This document shows, piece by piece, positions 2,296-39,455 of a stretch of DNA of 39,455 nt (position 1 is the first letter of the stretch; the number at the start of each line of letters is the position of its first letter). The DNA comes from Candidatus Hydrogenedentota bacterium (lineage in GTDB: Bacteria; Hydrogenedentota; Hydrogenedentia; Hydrogenedentales; GCA-2746185), in the NCBI GenBank assembly GCA_046583315.1, contig JAYGCN010000316.1, positions 1-39,455 of the forward strand, in the 5' to 3' direction. Below the pieces are notes generated by a model. The model was not told the origin of the DNA, did not search any database, and saw only the letters and a list, made by a program, of their open reading frames with translations. Both the position numbers and the translations under genes were made by a program.

Positions 2296-4020
2296 CTAAA
2301 ATCCGCCGAGACCTTGTCCCAAACTGAGCAGCGAACCTGCCTGTGACTGAAATGTTGCCACCAACTGCTCCATTGCGACAAAACGCGAACGCAACCGAGC
2401 CTCTTTCAACTCGAGACGTCGCTCCATGGCCTCAATGCGCTCGTTAAGCGAGCGAATTTGCGAATCAATAGTACCATTTGAGCGGGCGCGATCGTTCAGA
2501 AAGCCTCCCGTACTGGAAATTTCATCCAGGTAGGCAAACAGTTTATCTGCGATGCCTGTTTCGGCATCGTTTGAGAATATCTCTTCGATATTGGTGACGT
2601 TTTTCCCGATGGCAGCGCTAAGCTTCGTCTCATCAATCTCCAACTGAAAGACAGCCGAGGCGCTAAAGTTTTCCCCGGTGCTGATACCGATTTCCAGAAG
2701 ACTTTCGAGACCTCCTGACAAGCCGGGCACCCGGTCAAATATCGTGGAGGTCAAAAAATTCTTGATACTGCGTATGCTTCCGTCGCCGGATAGTTCGCCT
2801 TTGTCCCCAACGAGCTCGGCAATGGACATCACCGACTCATTGAAACTGTCCACGAACTCCTGAATCACGCTGATGACCGCGTCCTGATCTTGCGAGACGG
2901 TCAAAGTCGTTGTTCCGATACTTTTGAGATTGATTGTGAGATCGCCAATGACGGTGGAGACATTGTTGCTGTTGCGGGTCAATACCGGACCGCCATCCAC
3001 AGAAAACTGAGAATCCAATCCTACGCTCTGGTTGGCCGATGCCAGATTCATGATGTCCAGGAAATTGCTGGTGCCGCTCGCAAACGAGATGGTTCGGCTG
3101 CCAAGGTTGTCGGATACAACACGTATCCCATCCGTTGTCGGATCATAACTTGCCGTCACGCCGGCATCGGAGTCATTGATACGGGCAATCACGTCGCTCA
3201 CAGCATCGACCGTCGGGTCCACCGTGATAGCGATACCGTTGATGAAGAAGCTACCACCCGTGATGGCACCACCTACATAGTTTTGCGTATCGAGGGTCTT
3301 CCCTTCGTCTATTCGGCCCAGTCCCACCGAAGACACGACCTCTGTCGATCCGTTTCCGTTTGTAAACTGGGTAGCATCGGTGATATTGATGATGTCCCAA
3401 AAGTTGCTCGTGTCGCCGGTACCGCCAAAGTTGATAATACTTGTGTCACCGGGCGTTGAATTCTCGATGGTGACCTTGTCCGTCGCGGCATCGTAGGTAG
3501 CGGTCACACCAATCCCGGCGACGTTTATTTGATCCATCACCGCTTTAAGCGTCGATACGGAGAAATCGAAATTAAATTGCGCTCCGTTGATCGTGAATTG
3601 TCCAGAGGTAATTTCCCGGTTGACGCCGGAGTTTTCGAGTGGGACACCGATGGGAGTGATGGAAGCCCCGATTCGACCAATGCTCGTAGCCACTGTCGCA
3701 CTTGCAAGTTGCGTTACGTCGATTACGAACGCACCCGCCGTGGGGTTTGGTCCGGAAGGCGTCGCGGTGCCGACGGTCTCATCACTGGAAGAGACCGTAA
3801 ACTGATTGAAGTCAAGGCCAAAGCGGAAATCCTGAAGCGTGGTGCGAAGAGTGAGCAGCTGTGTACGCAAATCCGAGACCGCGTCGCGTTGCTTTTCCAG
3901 AGTGCCGATTCTGCTCTGAAAGCGTAGGAGGGGTATCCGCTCAATTTGCATCAGCTGAGCGACAAGGTTGTTTGTATCCAGCCCTGTAATCAGTCCTCCT
4001 GATGAAAATGTACCTGACAT
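2296..4020 (-). CDS. fliD: Flagellar filament capping protein FliD
   Basis: N-terminal GLITGLDTNNLVAQLMQIERIP, VTQLASA, FVDSFN, C-terminal coiled coil RLRSRFVAME; GGAGG RBS at 4026-4030. Confidence 0.95.
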   Translation of the reverse strand: MSGTFSSGGLITGLDTNNLVAQLMQIERIPLLRFQSRIGTLEKQRDAVSDLRTQLLTLRTTLQDFRFGLDFNQFTVSSSDETVGTATPSGPNPTAGAFVIDVTQLASATVATSIGRIGASITPIGVPLENSGVNREITSGQFTINGAQFNFDFSVSTLKAVMDQINVAGIGVTATYDAATDKVTIENSTPGDTSIINFGGTGDTSNFWDIINITDATQFTNGNGSTEVVSSVGLGRIDEGKTLDTQNYVGGAITGGSFFINGIAITVDPTVDAVSDVIARINDSDAGVTASYDPTTDGIRVVSDNLGSRTISFASGTSNFLDIMNLASANQSVGLDSQFSVDGGPVLTRNSNNVSTVIGDLTINLKSIGTTTLTVSQDQDAVISVIQEFVDSFNESVMSIAELVGDKGELSGDGSIRSIKNFLTSTIFDRVPGLSGGLESLLEIGISTGENFSASAVFQLEIDETKLSAAIGKNVTNIEEIFSNDAETGIADKLFAYLDEISSTGGFLNDRARSNGTIDSQIRSLNERIEAMERRLELKEARLRSRFVAMEQLVATFQSQAGSLLSLGQGLGGF

Positions 4021-7561: not shown

Positions 7562-8029
7562 ATGAGTTTACAAGACGAGTTGGGATTGCAAAATCCTTTC
7601 AACGACATCCGGCATGAAGCGGTTCTCAATATTGTACGAACGGCGAACCTCTTCTCGGCGAAGGCAGCCCAACTTTTCCGAAACTATGATCTCACCGAGG
7701 CGCAGTTCAACGTGCTCTTCGCGTTGAAATTTGCAGCGGGCGATATTACCCAGGCGGAACTGGGCAAACGGCTCGTGGTGACGCGCGCGAGCATCACTTC
7801 GGTACTCGACAAACTTGAATCAAAAGATCTCGTCAAGCGGGTCAATGTTCCGGACAATCGGCGCATTCATCACGTGGAATTAACGATCAAAGGGCGCGCG
7901 CTCATCGACCAGGTTGAACCGCGTTACCGGGACGAAATTCATCTCGCGCTTTCGGATATGGAGATTGACGATTGCCACCAGCTTATCAACCAGTTGGAAA
8001 AAGCACGCGGGCGCGTACAAAATTTATAA
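7562..8029 (+). CDS. MarR family transcriptional regulator
   Basis: LTEAQFNVL, QAELGKRL.VTRASITSVLDKLE, DNRR, LTIKG; AAGGAG RBS at 7551-7556. Confidence 0.9.
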   Translation: MSLQDELGLQNPFNDIRHEAVLNIVRTANLFSAKAAQLFRNYDLTEAQFNVLFALKFAAGDITQAELGKRLVVTRASITSVLDKLESKDLVKRVNVPDNRRIHHVELTIKGRALIDQVEPRYRDEIHLALSDMEIDDCHQLINQLEKARGRVQNL

Positions 8030-30202: not shown

Positions 30203-32395
30203 ATGCGAAAACTTGTTTTACTGGGCGGTGGACATAGCCAGATTGAGGTGTTGCGGCAGTTCGCGATGCACCCGGTTGATGACGTGGCGATTACGTTGGT
30301 GACGCGTGAACTGATGGCGCCGTATTCGGGTATGCTGCCGGGTTTCATCGCGGGACATTACACGCACGGCGAGGCCCATATCGACTTGAGGAGTCTTGCC
30401 GAAGCGGCGGGTGCGCGCGTGGTGTTTGCTGAAGCCTGCAAAGTCGATGCAGAGAAGAAAGCAGTGCTTTTTGACGACCGTCCAGCGCTCGACTACGATC
30501 TGCTCTCGATCAACATCGGCTCCCGTCCCGTCATGACCGATATTCCCGGTGCACGCGATTACGCGTTGCCGTCCAAGCCGGTCGACCAGCTCATCGAAGG
30601 CTGGGAACGGATTCAGCAGGATGCGCTTGCCTCGAACGATCCTTACACGATTACGATTGTCGGCGCGGGTGCGGGGGGCGTGGAACTGGCGCTCACCATG
30701 CAGTATCATCTGAAGACGACCCACACGCAGAGCACGGATACACCTTTCAATGTGCGTATTAACGTCGTCACCGATGACGATAAAATTCTTCCCACGCATA
30801 ATGAGGGCGTACGCACACGCATTATGCGGCTCATGCACGAGCGCGACATTCAAATTCATCTGTTGCAGCGCGTTACTGAAGTCGTGGAGGGATCGATTGC
30901 TACTCAAGAGGCAGACCGCTTCGACTTCGACGCGCTCATCTGGGTCACGAACGCCGCCGCGCCATTCTGGTTGCGCGAGTCGGCTATACAGACGAACGAC
31001 GAGGGATTTATTCTGATTGATCAGACCTTGCGTTCGACGTCGCACAGAGAAATTTTTGCAACGGGTGACATCGCGACACTGGAAAATTTTTCGCGTTCCA
31101 AGTCCGGCGTGTTCGCGGTTCGTCAAGGCCCTTACCTGGCCAAAAACATCCGTCACGCACTCACGGGCGAGTCCCTCGAAGAGTATGTGCCGCAAGAAAA
31201 ATTCCTTTCCCTCATCGGCACCGGCAACAAGAGCGCGATCGCATCAAAAGGGAATTTCTCCGCGCAGGGTCCGCACATCTGGGCCTGGAAGGATTACATC
31301 GATCGCAAGTTCATGAACATGTACGGCATGGTCACGATGAATTCCGGCGACTCTCAGGATGACATGGCCATGTCCCCCATGCACTGCGCGGGTTGCGGCT
31401 CCAAAGTAGGCGCACGTGTCTTGAGCCAATCGCTCTCCAGACTGCGCGAGGCGCACCCAGAAGCGGGTGAGCGCATCAGTTATGGGGACGATGCCGCTCT
31501 CGTAGCCTATCCCCAAGGCAAACAAGTCGCCATCACGGTCGATCACTTCAAGTCCTTCATCGACGATCCCTATCTACTCGGCAAAATCACCGCGACGCAT
31601 TGCCTGAGCGACATCTACGCCATGGGTGGACGGCCCCATAACGTGCTCGCATCGGTCACCCTGCCTCACGCGCTCGAAGACCACTACGGCGACGTATTAT
31701 ACGAGCTACTCGAAGGCACCTTCGCGACGCTTGAGGCCGATGGCGCAGCATTGGTCGGTGGACATACTGCGCAGGGTGAAGATTTTTTTTACGGACTCAC
31801 CGTAAACGGAGTCATGGACGATGCGCCCATCGAAAAACACGGTGCTTGCACGGGAGACGTAATTATTCTCACGAAGGCCATCGGTACCGGCACCGTACTC
31901 GCGGGCGACATGCGCAGACTCACGCAGAACACCTGGCTGCTCGGTGCGATTGATTCCATGACGGCCTCCAACCGCGAGGCCACCGCAATTTTTCGCGAAC
32001 ACCATGCCACGGCGCTGACCGACATCACGGGATTTGGTCTGGCAGGCCATCTGCTCGAAATGTTGGGCGATCAAACGACGGCCGAGGTCGCACTGGAAGA
32101 CGTGCCGCTGCTGCCCGGTGCATTGCGACTGAGCCGCGACGCAATTCGAAGTACGCTGTTCCCGGAAAATGTCCGTGTCGAAGATCAGATTACGAACGCG
32201 GCCGACTTCCAGAAATTCGATTGCTATCCCCTGCTTTTTGATCCGCAAACCTCTGGCGGACTACTCGCTACCGTACCCGAACATAACGCTCGGGCCTGTG
32301 TCGAAGCGTTACAGGAAACAACGGGACAATGCGCTACCATCATCGGACACATCACCAACGACTCGTCCGCGCCCGGCACGATCACCTTAAGTTAA
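30203..32395 (+). CDS. selD: Selenide,water dikinase fused to N-terminal FAD-dependent (NDH-2/AIF-like) oxidoreductase
   Basis: LGGGHS, YSGMLPG, GAGAGGVE, FATGD, KSGVFAVRQG, WKDYIDRKF; SelD part MHCAGCGSKV, GDDAA, LSDIYAMGG, GGHT, LTKAIGTG, TDITGFGLAGHL, DPQTSGGLL. Confidence 0.93.
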   Translation: MRKLVLLGGGHSQIEVLRQFAMHPVDDVAITLVTRELMAPYSGMLPGFIAGHYTHGEAHIDLRSLAEAAGARVVFAEACKVDAEKKAVLFDDRPALDYDLLSINIGSRPVMTDIPGARDYALPSKPVDQLIEGWERIQQDALASNDPYTITIVGAGAGGVELALTMQYHLKTTHTQSTDTPFNVRINVVTDDDKILPTHNEGVRTRIMRLMHERDIQIHLLQRVTEVVEGSIATQEADRFDFDALIWVTNAAAPFWLRESAIQTNDEGFILIDQTLRSTSHREIFATGDIATLENFSRSKSGVFAVRQGPYLAKNIRHALTGESLEEYVPQEKFLSLIGTGNKSAIASKGNFSAQGPHIWAWKDYIDRKFMNMYGMVTMNSGDSQDDMAMSPMHCAGCGSKVGARVLSQSLSRLREAHPEAGERISYGDDAALVAYPQGKQVAITVDHFKSFIDDPYLLGKITATHCLSDIYAMGGRPHNVLASVTLPHALEDHYGDVLYELLEGTFATLEADGAALVGGHTAQGEDFFYGLTVNGVMDDAPIEKHGACTGDVIILTKAIGTGTVLAGDMRRLTQNTWLLGAIDSMTASNREATAIFREHHATALTDITGFGLAGHLLEMLGDQTTAEVALEDVPLLPGALRLSRDAIRSTLFPENVRVEDQITNAADFQKFDCYPLLFDPQTSGGLLATVPEHNARACVEALQETTGQCATIIGHITNDSSAPGTITLS

Positions 32396-34822: not shown

Positions 34823-36235
34823 ATGACGTTTTCAGATGCTTCGACAAGTCTAGTCATTGGGCTGCTCGTCGCGCACATACAGCCAGCCGCATTGGCTGCC
34901 CCTTCGGATTCCATCACTTATTACCGCGACGTAGCGCCGATTTTTGAAGCGCATTGCGTCACCTGCCATCGAGCCAACGAGGTCGCACCGATGTCGCTCA
35001 TGGAGTACGATCAGGTGCGCCCCTGGGCGAAGTCAATCAAAGAACAGGTGTCCAAAAAGATTATGCCACCGTTCCATGCCGACGGCCCCATCGGTCGATA
35101 CGAAAACGACTTGCGCCTCACAGATGATCATATTTCCACCGTGGCCGACTGGGTGGACCAGGGCGCACGCCGAGGAAAGCCCTAAGAGTTTCAACGAGAA
35201 AGAACATGGGAGTCACAAGAATGGCCGGCAGGCGTGCCCGATCTGATCGTCAATTTTCCGCGTCACGAATTGAAAACCGACGGCTTCGATCCCTACGTCT
35301 ATTTATTCACTGAGCATGAATTTACTGAGCACTTGTGGATTCGAGGATTCGACTGGAATTTCACGAACAAAAAATTCATACATCACGCCATCGCATTCGA
35401 ACTGGGGCCAGGATTCCCCAAGCCACCGGGTAAAATTTATGACGCGCTCAAAGTAGGCTTTCCCGCACGCCGAAGCGGCGCAGGTGCCGCCGATTACCTG
35501 CCCGGCTCAGGCCCGCGATTCTATCCCAAGCACGCCGCAATGCTGATTCCCAAGGGCGCTGTCATGTACGGAGTGTTTCATTATGCGCCGACTACTCAAT
35601 CCGACACCTGGGATCGGCCACAACTCGGACTCTATCTCGCGAACGGTGCCGTCAAGCGCCCTTACATGCGCCTCGACCTCACGTCCGATGACATCTTGAT
35701 CCAGCCCGGCGATTCCACGTACACGCAAATCATTTCGGGCATATTCCCGATGGATGCCTACGTGTCCGACTTTCATATTCACATGCACAATCGCGGGAAA
35801 AGCGGCACGATAAATATCACCTACTCCGATGGAAAAAAAGAAAACCTGTTCAGCATTCCCAACTTCAATTTCGATTGGCAGCGGCACTACTACCTGAAAG
35901 AACCGAAATTGATTCCCGCAGGAACCAAAGCCGAATTCATAGCCGTCTGGGACAACAGCGCGGACAATCCGAACAATCCCGATCCGACGGCAACGGTCGA
36001 ATACGGATCACTCACGCAAAACGAAATGGGCAACGCCAACATTACCTATACCTCAACAACCGACCTCCCCAACACGATCGCCGTGGAGAACGATCGAAAA
36101 ATCGGCCTCGCCCAATTGGCGGATAAAGTGCGCGTTATGTACCGAGCCGAAGTTCTCGCATTCCTCCAAAGCCTTAGCGCCGATCAGGCCGTGAGTATCC
36201 GAGGCATCTGGGAAAAAGCGAATGGGGAACTCTGA
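34823..36235 (+). pseudogene. Exported cytochrome c + copper type II (PHM/DBM-like) monooxygenase-domain protein with one in-frame TAA
   Basis: CVTCH heme motif, APMSL, IMPP; HHA, HIHMH.RGKS, FNFDWQRHY, WDNS..NP.NPDP, NEM; both ORFs share a frame across TAA at 35183-35185. Confidence 0.8.
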
Positions 36236-36297: not shown

Positions 36298-36393
36298 TGG
36301 CGGAAGTGGATGGGAATCGAACCCACCGCGCGAGCTCACACCCGCGCCACTGGTTTTGAAGACCAGGGCCATCACCAGATGACAATCACCTCC
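36298..36393 (-). tRNA. selC: tRNA-Sec (anticodon UCA)
   Basis: 96 nt; 6-bp D stem GTCATC/GATGGC with 4-nt loop, CTGGT-CTTCAAA-ACCAG anticodon arm, long variable arm, GTGGG-TTCGATT-CCCAT T arm, GCCA end. Confidence 0.95.
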
Positions 36394-36430
36394 GTGTAAA
36401 ATCAAGCTATTCTTTCGTATTTGGATCTCC

Positions 36431-36439
36431 ATTTTAGCA
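36431..36439 (-). promoter_or_regulatory. Putative extended -10 promoter of selC
   Basis: TGcTAAAAT about 38 nt upstream of the tRNA 5' end, unchanged in the duplicate at 37917-37925. Confidence 0.5.
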
Positions 36440-36888
36440 GATCCGCGAAGAAATCAAAAATTAGTGTGACAAGAGTGTGACATTTCGATCTGCGTGTATG
36501 ATTCATTTCGCGCGGCGCGGTTGAACACTTTCTTGGTGAGCGGAATAATCGGAAAGTAGACAAACTGAATTCGAGTTTATCAGTCGACAAAAAAATTACG
36601 CATTCAGAGAGAGAGATCCGTAGTAAATGAAGAGTATTCCGATGATGACTCCGGCCAGGCCCTCGTATGTAATTCATGACTCCGGAGGTGTCTTCGGGTA
36701 TGATTGATTCGACCATGGCCCAGTACGGGCACAACTCAATAACGGCAAACGGAAGTATTGCCGCATAGAAGCCATAAAAAAGTGAATATTCAATCAACTA
36801 AGGGGTATATAGTTGAATAACCTCTGGTTTTAGGGGCTTTTGAGACGTGCTTGTGAAATGCGCAGGCCGCTCGCACAGGAGAAATTCA

Positions 36889-37254
36889 ATGATAGAATTT
36901 GCGCTCGTACTCACCTGTTTGTTCGCCGGAACAATCGTGTTCTTCGCGGTGAGAGCGGAATTTTTTTTCGAGATGGTGGATTCCTTGACGCTGAGGCGGC
37001 TTCTCGTCGCGGGTGCGATTCGCATCGTGTTCGGGGTTGTTCTAATTGGAGCAGCGGCGGCGTCAGGCATGCCAACGTTTTTGAAGATTCTGGGTGTCTT
37101 GTTCATATTGGGTGGAATCTCCACTCCGATAATTGGCGTAGATAATATTCGTGCGATGGCTGCGATATATCAGCGTAATGCCTGGATTTTCAGGATGGTT
37201 TGCGTGGTTCCCCTCCTATTGTTTGGATTCGTTGCGTACGCGCTTGGACGATGA
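36889..37254 (+). CDS. Small multi-TM membrane protein (paralog 1)
   Basis: AGGAG RBS; AIRIVFGVVLIGAAAASGMPTFLKILGVL. Confidence 0.75.
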   Translation: MIEFALVLTCLFAGTIVFFAVRAEFFFEMVDSLTLRRLLVAGAIRIVFGVVLIGAAAASGMPTFLKILGVLFILGGISTPIIGVDNIRAMAAIYQRNAWIFRMVCVVPLLLFGFVAYALGR

Positions 37255-37317
37255 AACGAAGTTGATCCGGACGCGGTTCGCGCGTTCTAAAGAATCACTA
37301 CTGACGGGAGAGATCGA

Positions 37318-37725
37318 GTGAGAAAATCAGCCTTTCTATTTACGTCGTTCTATGCAGTTGTCCTGTTCATCCTCCTGCTGAAACCGGGCCTGTTTATTCA
37401 AGCCCTGGAGTCCATGTCGTGGCGGTGGATCATGCTCGAGGAAGCCATTCGCGGCGGCTTCGCGGTGAGCCTGTTTGGAGCCGCATCCACTTCACGCATG
37501 CCGGTGTTCCTGCGGGTTATCGGTGTACTGACGATCGCTGAGGGGTTCTGCTACGTCATCATTGGGAGTGAAGGTCTCCTCGCAATCAATGATGCGATGA
37601 TTGGCGAAAACATTGCGCTCTTCAGGGCTGCGATAGTGGGTACTTTGATGCTCATGGGCGTTATCGCGTTCGGGCTTATGTCGCCTCGCGAGGACGAAGC
37701 AGTGCCGCAGGGAATACCCCAGTAG
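37318..37725 (+). CDS. Small multi-TM membrane protein (paralog 2)
   Basis: GGGAG RBS; AIRGGFAVSLFGAASTSRMPVFLRVIGVL aligns with paralog 1. Confidence 0.75.
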   Translation: MRKSAFLFTSFYAVVLFILLLKPGLFIQALESMSWRWIMLEEAIRGGFAVSLFGAASTSRMPVFLRVIGVLTIAEGFCYVIIGSEGLLAINDAMIGENIALFRAAIVGTLMLMGVIAFGLMSPREDEAVPQGIPQ

Positions 37726-37837
37726 AATCGGCATAGGAAGTAGATCGAAGGGCAGAAAAGCGGGCTAGGCGGGAGCACTCAACTAGAGATCATACGGTGG
37801 ATGAAATGGGGCTCGAAAGCACGAAAACAAAGTCATC

Positions 37838-37879
37838 GGTTTTGAAGACCAGGGCCATCACCAGATGACAATCACCTCC
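37838..37879 (-). repeat. Duplicated 5' half of tRNA-Sec (att-like fragment)
   Basis: Identical to tRNA nt 1-42 (GGAGGTGA...CTTCAAAACC); identity stops 3 nt past the anticodon loop. Confidence 0.9.
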
Positions 37880-38328
37880 GTGTAGAATCAAGCTATTCAT
37901 TCATATTTCGATCTGTATTTTAGCAGATTCGGGTATAAATCTAAAATTAGTGTGACAAAATTGTGACACGAAATTCAAAGTACGGACCAGCACACTTCAT
38001 GAAATACATATTCAGCGATTGGTTTCAATAGTGAAAGTTCATGTAGCCCCATGTTAGTCAAAACAGTTAGCGTGAAAGATTTTAAACAGAGAATCGAAGA
38101 AGGTGTTTAGGTAGGCCTCTTATGGAACAAGGATTTAATTTGAACACAACCCAGGGCAGAACCTTTGCTACCCCGAAAACTCAGTCTACTCCACCAGTGA
38201 TACTACACTTTTCCTTTGAATTATTCGTACCTGTCTGCTATGATTCTGCCGTGTATTGGTCGGCGTGTTCGGAGATCCCATTGATGTACCAGGTACAATT
38301 CCTATGGCAACGAAACCGCATTGAAAAT

Positions 38329-39455
38329 ATGACCACTCAAATGGTTCTTCCGCTTCACTGGACATTCGCCGTATTGGGGCTTACATTATTATTGACGGGT
38401 TGTACCGAACAGTCAAAACCAATCGATTATGATCTCGCGTATATTTCCCGAACCGATGCAATAACACGGTCACGCGAAGCAATAGTGCATGAAATCCAGG
38501 CGAATGGTGGGTGGGCTTCTTGGGTGGAGGCTACGCAGTCCTTTCGACTTGACCTTAAACGATACAATCAAGCGAAGCCGACACTCCCTACGAAAAACCG
38601 CTTGATAAAAGGATACGAGGGATTCTGGGTGCATCCCGCCAGTGTTCGCGGATACAGTATGCCTATCGTATTGAGGCAGGAATCTCCAAGAACGATACAA
38701 GAGTCAGAGGCCGTTGTCGATTCTATCATTGGGTTCAACACCTTTCTAAATGAATTAGGAATTGACCTAATCTTCGTCCCCGTTCCGTCTCGTGTAGATG
38801 TGTACCCGGAACACTTCTCAACGGCCGCCCAGCGTGATATTCATCCTGACCCGTACACCAAAGCAGTAATGCTGCGCCTATTGGAGGAAGACATTGAGGT
38901 AGTTGACCTCTACGACGAACTCATCAGTGCAAAAAAAGAAGCAGGTGAAAAACTTATCTACTACAGGGCAGATCCTCATCCCCGGTCGATTGCAAAAGAC
39001 ATCATCGCTTTAGAGATCGCGAGCCGATTGATGAGATATCCATCGGTTCGGAACGGCTATCTTGGACGTCCGATATACCGCACCAGACAATTACCGGGAC
39101 CAAAGATTCTCGAATACAACATCGCGCCGGATGATCCGGATGCGTTGTCCGCGTGTACCGAATGCGGGTACACGGAGATTCTGGATGAACACGGTGAAAC
39201 TCTTTTCGCGAAAGACGCCAGTCGAATTATCATTACGGGAGACAGCTTTGTGTTCGCCCCACTACGGCGTGTCAACAAACAGCCAGCCGCCGGTATAAGC
39301 CTGTACAGTCATATCGCGCGAGCGATCCGTATGAAGTCCGCCGTAATTTGTCAACAGGCTGGAGGCCCCAAAGCCCCTCTAATGGTGGCAACATCTCGAG
39401 ATTATTCACTTGAAGACAGGGACGTAGTCGTTTGGATAATGAGCGCCTACTTTAT
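38329..39455 (+). CDS. AlgX/AlgJ-like SGNH O-acetyltransferase lipoprotein (3' truncated; absent from ORF track)
   Basis: Manual translation is open from ATG 38329 to the window end: lipobox LLLTG-C, GIDLIFVPVPSRVDVYPEH, VVDLY, YYRADPH (DxH), IITGDSF, DVVVWIM. Confidence 0.75.
   Translation, partial: MTTQMVLPLHWTFAVLGLTLLLTGCTEQSKPIDYDLAYISRTDAITRSREAIVHEIQANGGWASWVEATQSFRLDLKRYNQAKPTLPTKNRLIKGYEGFWVHPASVRGYSMPIVLRQESPRTIQESEAVVDSIIGFNTFLNELGIDLIFVPVPSRVDVYPEHFSTAAQRDIHPDPYTKAVMLRLLEEDIEVVDLYDELISAKKEAGEKLIYYRADPHPRSIAKDIIALEIASRLMRYPSVRNGYLGRPIYRTRQLPGPKILEYNIAPDDPDALSACTECGYTEILDEHGETLFAKDASRIIITGDSFVFAPLRRVNKQPAAGISLYSHIARAIRMKSAVICQQAGGPKAPLMVATSRDYSLEDRDVVVWIMSAYF

Follow-up and report, generated by a model that had tools for sequence, protein, structure and literature searches.

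Islands that hold a 5' fragment of their target tRNA gene, and tandem island remnants, are already in print (PMC4383910, PMC8371274, PMC7563491). Of the 3919 islands counted by Islander, which requires an integrase and a length of 2 to 200 kb, 159 carry a 5' fragment and 125 are tandems (PMC4383910). Integrase-less remnants of 1.2 to 13 kb, the CIMEs of streptococci, also lie in tandem, according to the accessible text (PMC7563491). The pTN3-like integrases of the Thermococcales target the 5' half of tRNA genes, and the available passages describe the rebuilt tRNA as expressed from the promoter of the element (PMC8371274, PMC5495485); in bacteria, by the same account, a rebuilt tRNA nearly always keeps its own promoter, and the element-promoter case is seldom met (PMC8371274).

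We analyzed a window of 39,455 nt, the whole of contig C299 in a 4.65-Mb assembly of a Candidatus Hydrogenedentota bacterium (355 contigs, 96.7% complete, 5.4% contamination). Its selC locus resembles the 5'-fragment islands of Islander in having an intact tRNA gene, an upstream fragment in the same orientation, an apparent anticodon-loop crossover and a tandem arrangement, but the unit measures only 1.49 kb and has no integrase, so it would be filtered out; the elements of two relatives, G113 and G007, would qualify if assembled on one replicon (PMC4383910, accessible part). As in CIMEs, no recombination or conjugation genes were found, cargo is present, the size falls in the same range, and the units lie in tandem at a target gene with the apparently newest one adjoining it (PMC7563491, as far as its text is accessible). 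Of the att sites, both of which a CIME retains, the unit has a core at either end along with a single arm pair; a second pair was not found. The accessible text places CIMEs at the 3' ends of genes and derives them from ICEs or IMEs, whereas here the stack would grow on the 5' side, each end has a predicted promoter, and one arm pair is missing (PMC7563491). The tRNA's 5' half is targeted as in pTN3-like systems, with a promoter swap that is here a prediction; those systems are archaeal with the att site inside the integrase gene, whereas the related integrase genes considered here are whole and flanked by arm-like pairs (PMC8371274, PMC5495485, accessible parts). The additive flexible genomic islands of Alteromonas likewise form a marine tRNA hotspot with variable cassettes and partial tRNA repeats, but their repeat lies downstream of the cassette, and the accessible text describes no promoter replacement (PMC4898812). 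Three further papers contributed nothing decisive to the comparison (PMC10865867, PMC9897764, PMC5812530). A search of titles and the starts of abstracts returned no 5'-side stack at selC.

Integrons are defined by IntI, attI and attC. The locus is like an integron in presenting a row of small gene units with the newest probably nearest the anchor, but it has no IntI and no attC, and its junctions consist of a tRNA core and an arm pair. We regard the arrangement as an uncommon mirror image of a known process and not as an integron. It offers a clean example of a bacterium whose only intact selC probably owes its promoter and front half to DNA from mobile elements, and the hotspot concerned would escape island finders requiring an integrase. 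The orphan repeat is tied to one integrase clade with both layouts in one phylum, so the layout switch and the Ser-to-Sec target switch can be studied. Each ingredient is known, and the gain is therefore modest unless the units prove mobile.

The repeat at selC and its upstream block

The sole tRNA gene in the window is a tRNA-Sec (ARAGORN; Rfam RF01852, 78.3 bits). A preliminary description had reported a 131-nt ungapped direct repeat with 13 mismatches at an offset of 1486, and alignment and blastn bore this out (36352-36482 versus 37838-37968; E 1e-45 in the genome). The repeat consists of nt 1-42 of the tRNA and 89 upstream nt. The copies do not differ over their first 47 nt, comprising tRNA nt 1-42 and 5 nt upstream, and all of the mismatches fall within 36399-36475. 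Identity stops, as had been described, at the symmetric GGT-TTTGAAG-ACC, 3 nt beyond the anticodon loop (36355-36361 and 37841-37847), and the same stop is found on contig C5. The reported absence of an integrase between the copies also held: Pfam gave no family for the two cargo ORFs (E<=0.1), and a six-frame search with a profile built from 30 related integrases had no match there. Because the assembly encodes selA and selB, on contig C271, and the window a SelD-like fusion, selC is probably in use.

Features of the selC locus (window coordinates)
Feature	Position	Strand	Remarks
Intact tRNA-Sec gene (selC)	36298..36393	-	nt 1-42 probably from the newest element, 3' half probably from the host
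Symmetric att core GGT-CTTCAAA-ACC	36352..36364	-	7-nt loop 36355-36361, presumed strand-exchange region
Proximal 89-nt upstream block	36394..36482	-	putative attP P arm, directly fronting selC
Extended -10-like motif TGCTAAAAT	36431..36439	-	~37 nt before tRNA; predicted selC promoter
TGTCACA-N4-TGTCACA pair, 11-bp period	36465..36482	-	118 nt from core; predicted arm-type integrase binding sites
Frameshifted small membrane-protein gene remnant	36605..36782	-	paralogue of C196:272-679 (tblastn in two frames, E 8e-5)
Cargo ORF A, small membrane protein	36847..37254	+	ATG 36889, 121 aa; DUF2065-like lead only
Cargo ORF B, 135 aa	37318..37725	+	ORF A paralogue, 34% over 116 aa
Decayed tRNA 3' half behind distal core	37787..37837	-	closest to tRNA-Ser(TGA); putative P' end of 1486-bp unit
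Displaced tRNA-Sec 5' half (nt 1-42)	37838..37879	-	identical to intact gene
Distal 89-nt block	37880..37968	-	76/89 identical; putative P arm of older element
-10-like motif, distal block	37917-37925	-	sequence match
Distal arm pair	37951-37968	-	within distal 89-nt block
AlgX-like SGNH gene	38122..39455	+	truncated by contig end; probable cargo of older unit, pointing away from tRNA

The arm-type role of the TGTCACA pairs is a reading based on lambda-family integrases. A pair stands at -118 in three blocks of this genome, the two in the window and one on C5, with 14/14, 14/14 and 10/14 matching positions; among random 200-nt windows, 170 of 3000 reached at least 10/14 and none exceeded 12. 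The three blocks align ungapped with the same spacing. The window blocks share 76/89 positions, and the C5 block shares 48/89 and 46/89 with them, while 2000 shuffles for each comparison gave at most 41. Because the selC island of G113 shows the same layout at both of its ends, the block is most likely the attP arm of an integrase of the G113/G007 clade. The motif TGCTAAAAT is kept in both window blocks, and similar motifs front selC at loci L008, L009 and L014 and on contig C196. A promoter scan called the distal copy (TTTAGA-17-TAAAAT with TG, 9/12) and did not call the proximal one, and it returned 5 sites in total versus 2.4 +/- 1.4 in shuffles; the selC promoter in the block is thus a prediction from a motif match.

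The preliminary description had suggested searching for more copies of the repeat, and this yielded the third block, on C5, with a tRNA-Sec 5' half behind it (7674-7715, 41/42), as well as further selC pieces on C5 and C196; a profile of the three blocks detected no fourth one in the assembly. A decayed tRNA-Sec half (C5:6270-6312, 81%) lies 1.4 kb upstream of C5:7674-7715 and adjoins a pilM-type operon that is present in 13 of the 14 family genomes. Behind C5:7715, the unit seems to run into contig C120 by way of a 93%-identical overlap and to extend at least 3.5 kb, so not all units would be small. On C196, nt 1-71 of a tRNA-Sec (2857-2927) are preceded by a -10 motif of native appearance and followed, 380 nt further on, by a diverged tRNA 3' piece; there is also a P'-type pair at +105 (2991-3008, 11/14) that is near-identical to one in an island of genome G017. 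These pieces may represent the outermost junction, a separate scar of the standard layout or another strain. C196 does not fit a single linear stack, and no assembled sequence connects C5 with the window. The same stretch of C196 (L002, G000:C196 2857-3336) also contains a fragment of a ResIII/helicase gene.

Outside the genome, the block had no meaningful match among plasmids and phages. An exact 32-nt pattern of the tRNA half had 0 matches in metagenome contigs, and two degenerate tRNA-Sec patterns had 0 and 2 matches in viral contigs, neither of them a tRNA-Sec call. A pattern of arm plus core matched GTDB contigs eight times, four times at tRNA-Sec, and no second core was present at the eight loci; this pattern missed G113, whose pair falls outside the allowed spacing.

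Related islands and their integrases

The tyrosine recombinases of the assembly are XerD (C68), XerC (C207) and one fragment on C121. The last is a C-terminal integrase fragment near a contig end (G000:C121 9720-10067, L005) and probably belongs to another island. No integrase or remnant of the G113/G007 clade was found in the assembly (96.7% complete, 355 contigs), with a profile of the clade included in the search.

G113, a member of the same order, has a displaced tRNA-Sec 5' half followed by a GTCACA pair at about +86 and then by the gene of a 383-aa integrase (phrog_1, E 2e-72), and on another contig an intact tRNA-Sec whose GTCACA pair lies at about -130. The two ends (L176 and L177) belong to an apparently intact island with the 5' layout. 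Among the 26 intact tRNA-Sec loci fetched from relatives, only the one in G113 has such a pair. The Ser loci of the phylum were examined as well, since tRNA-Ser(TGA) shares the core save for one base. In G007, a member of the same family, we found two elements of the clade in the layout of the window, one of 6.7 kb at tRNA-Ser(TGA) and one of 9 kb at tRNA-Lys. In the Ser element, the intact tRNA stands behind an 11-bp-period pair at -113 with a 367-aa PF00589 integrase encoded just beyond the pair, and the far end carries a displaced 43-nt front half with the host -10 and a second pair. The distances of the P-side pair from the core are -118 in the three blocks, about -130 in G113 and -113 in G007, and in the elements of both relatives a second pair lies on the P' side, 86-105 nt past the core. 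The integrases of the two G007 elements (L134 800-7600, Ser-TGA; L178 3815-12877, Lys-TTT) are 70% identical, one of them with an internal TAG, and weak matches to DnaG zinc-finger and Toprim domains were seen in this relative.

Relatives of the G007 integrase occupy 28 loci in 24 of the 135 phylum genomes. ARAGORN placed a co-oriented tRNA upstream of 23 of them, a divergent one upstream of 2 and none upstream of 3 (one being G113). By layout, the 23 with a co-oriented tRNA would be standard, as judged from tRNA orientation alone, while three have the 5' layout and two have no tRNA in reach. An 11-bp-period pair occurs within 600 nt of the integrase start at 18 of the 28 loci versus 20 of 2000 random windows, as counted with a pattern that was chosen post hoc and misses the TGTCACA type. 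A single-sequence model of the N terminus of the G113 integrase gave three strands and a helix (pLDDT 66), with fold matches at Z 5-6 that are not above background, such as the GCC-box domain 2gcc (Z 5.6, rmsd 2.8, 52 aligned). The same integrase is a long branch in a quick, unfinished tree, which was not used for the order of events. Queried against viral contigs, the G007 integrase had no relatives, and the 80 matches kept for the G113 integrase were mostly distant, the top five without tRNA-Sec.

An exact core scan of the 135 phylum genomes gave second matches in G007 and G109 and a match in G001, all of which lie inside genes and were discarded as chance; the scan missed the displaced half of G113, which ends 1 nt earlier. 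No empty site was found in G001. The genus has a single further genome (84% complete), in which no tRNA-Sec exceeds the cut-off and synteny does not extend past 34805.

Probable origin of the tandem units

We put the probability at roughly 75% that both copies of the repeat are attP-derived ends of islands that were stacked in the anticodon loop of selC and have since lost their integrases. On the model of G113 and G007, a circular element whose attP held the arm pair, the promoter, tRNA nt 1-42, the core and then P' would have recombined at the anticodon loop, with the tyrosine integrase crossing over in the 7 nt of the loop. The front half of the host would thereby be displaced upstream, and that of the element would be joined to the 3' half of the host. 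Later arrivals would hit the intact rebuilt gene, leaving the newest unit next to the 3' half and moving older ends upstream, so that each junction would read old P arm, front half, core and new P'; the window would hold one junction and the current end. Transcription of selC would then start from the block of the newest element, at the predicted promoter. Deletions would have stripped the integrase and the second arm pair, both of which are absent, while the block next to selC would have been retained because its loss would silence the only intact selC of the assembly. The usual excision through two arms would not work for such a unit, but recombination between the repeats could remove it and would place an intact selC behind the distal block. 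The island ends in G113 and G007, the C5 block and the variant blocks in public runs all support what the preliminary description had proposed, namely, that crossover took place in the anticodon loop with a 5'-restoring layout, that the DNA preceding selC derives from an element and that the distal copy marks the end of an older element. The best reading of the locus is as CIME-like tandem remnants of 5'-restoring islands. Counting against it are the lack of a clade integrase in the assembly, the location of the G113 ends on two contigs, the long branch of the G113 integrase in the quick tree, the lack of an observed empty site, the unassembled connection to C5 and the poor fit of C196 to one linear stack. 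Additionally, the cargo genes stop 20, 43 and 112 nt from the cores in the three units, which is tidier than random deletion predicts and speaks against pure decay.

Behind the distal core lie 60 nt that can be aligned with the 3' half of the genome's tRNA-Ser(TGA) and with its displaced fragment on C252. No shuffle in 1000 matched the alignment to either, while 138 of 1000 did so for tRNA-Sec, and the mean scores of this vestige were 33.7 against 18 Ser halves and 27.4 against 26 Sec halves. The comparison suggests descent from a Ser-targeting element that restored the 3' half. A Ser origin could not be assigned to the C5 vestige, which is tRNA-like but ambiguous (mean 35.1 for Ser and 36.2 for Sec), and neither G007 nor G113 has a clear tRNA 3' vestige behind the core. 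The displaced hybrids were rejected as working tRNAs (29.2 and 40.8 bits versus a cut-off of 47; the MFE structure gives no cloverleaf). As a tentative extension, to which we give rather low odds, selC may anchor a live, integrase-free array: a visiting integrase, or recombination, would add or exchange compact units with a single arm pair, a promoter and a front half, and the host could not delete the newest without losing selenocysteine. The Ser(TGA)-like 3' half would then be a fossil of a switch of the clade from 3' to 5' rebuilding, by way of an attP that once held the whole tRNA gene and a one-base loop switch from Ser (TGA) to Sec (TCA).

The contents of the units bear on an explanation that we consider unlikely, in which they are purpose-built nonautonomous cassettes, moved in trans by a visiting clade integrase with a single arm pair or swapped by homologous recombination anchored in the block. 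Two units are compact (1486 and ~1404 bp), the full-length cargo genes all point away from the tRNA and stop close to the core, the displaced halves remain 41-42/42 identical although the blocks diverge, and public runs contain variant blocks that have different DNA behind them; each of these would suit cassettes. However, no second arm pair lies within 200 nt behind the distal core or C5:7715 (best 8/14 and 9/14, at background level), in contrast to the elements of G113 and G007, a unit encloses a pseudogene, and the C5:7715 unit seems to be larger. No IntI exceeded the cut-off in the incomplete assembly (TIGR02249, best 89.7 bits versus 265, XerC/XerD only), and the pattern RYYYAAC...GTTRRRY found no attC-like site in 36300-38200 and one match on C5, inside an esterase gene. 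The terms "integron-like" and "mobilised in trans" of the preliminary description find no support, given the lack of IntI, attC, a clade integrase and a second arm pair and the frameshifted gene remnant in the unit. Regarding the cargo itself, the DUF2065-like lead rests on 13% of one atlas cluster, and a homologue search returned only the query. The tetranucleotide profile of the AlgX-like gene is atypical (0 of 200 random stretches were as low). The cargo membrane genes have a third paralogue, behind an ABC-transporter-like operon (G000:C277 1928-2263).

Parts of the unit occur in public marine runs from three studies, of which X1 may be the source sample of the window; no RNA run was among those listed. 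One X1 contig of 1499 nt matches 36369-37867 with 2 differing letters and ends inside each tRNA half; one of its ends carries the block, the other the decayed 3' half. A contig of X2, from another study, spans 36370-37646 and starts inside the proximal half, and one of X3 spans 37152-37867. Another X3 contig carries a variant block and departs from the window exactly after 36482, and one X2 contig departs after 36399; these contigs may originate from sister species. None of the run contigs listed bridges the 47-nt identical stretch, so the order of units across the junctions rests on the window assembly. The tandem order would be an artifact if the assembly were a mosaic of strain variants with one unit each at selC, for which the contamination level, the divergent C5/C120 overlap and the lack of a public contig across the 47-nt core could be cited. 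We hold this to be highly improbable, as the X1 contig spans from one tRNA half to the other; its end needs an upstream block plus half, or a host half, in any strain, so the reading as island remnants would survive a different order. Joints of 36327 to ~37836 in run contigs were rejected as excision products, since other letters lie between the sides and the sides are near 30 nt, and we read them as tRNAs of other organisms.

That the native selC promoter and 5' half were duplicated locally long ago, with no integrase involved, has very little probability and is largely refuted already by G113: the assembly does lack an integrase, and the -10-like motif does resemble the native selC promoters of relatives, but the same loop-symmetric breakpoint recurs in three copies, the arm pair matches the integrase-linked selC island of G113, and the pair is missing at 25 of 26 selC loci of relatives.

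Some further features were seen near selC and at Ser loci. The oxidoreductase-SelD fusion (30203-32395, plus strand), about 4 kb from selC, scored over the cut-off for TIGR03169 and for selD TIGR00476 and under it for TIGR04369. Between this gene and the tRNA lies a gene with a heme-binding-like N terminus (34823-36235, plus strand), split by an in-frame TAA at 35183-35185 and from a family with many paralogues in relatives. The tRNA-Ser(TGA) gene of the genome is at G000:C128 237-320, and the C252 fragment (3572-3632) is a damaged 3' part of the same tRNA; the sequence that follows it recurs in G006:C81 (L122), pointing to a common island end at Ser. Displaced tRNA-Ser(TGA) 3' fragments with a common upstream end were also found at L087, L088, L114, L115 and L140 (family f10). 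They have an 11-bp-period pair at -131 to -135, and G043:C123 holds two of them, 30 kb apart.
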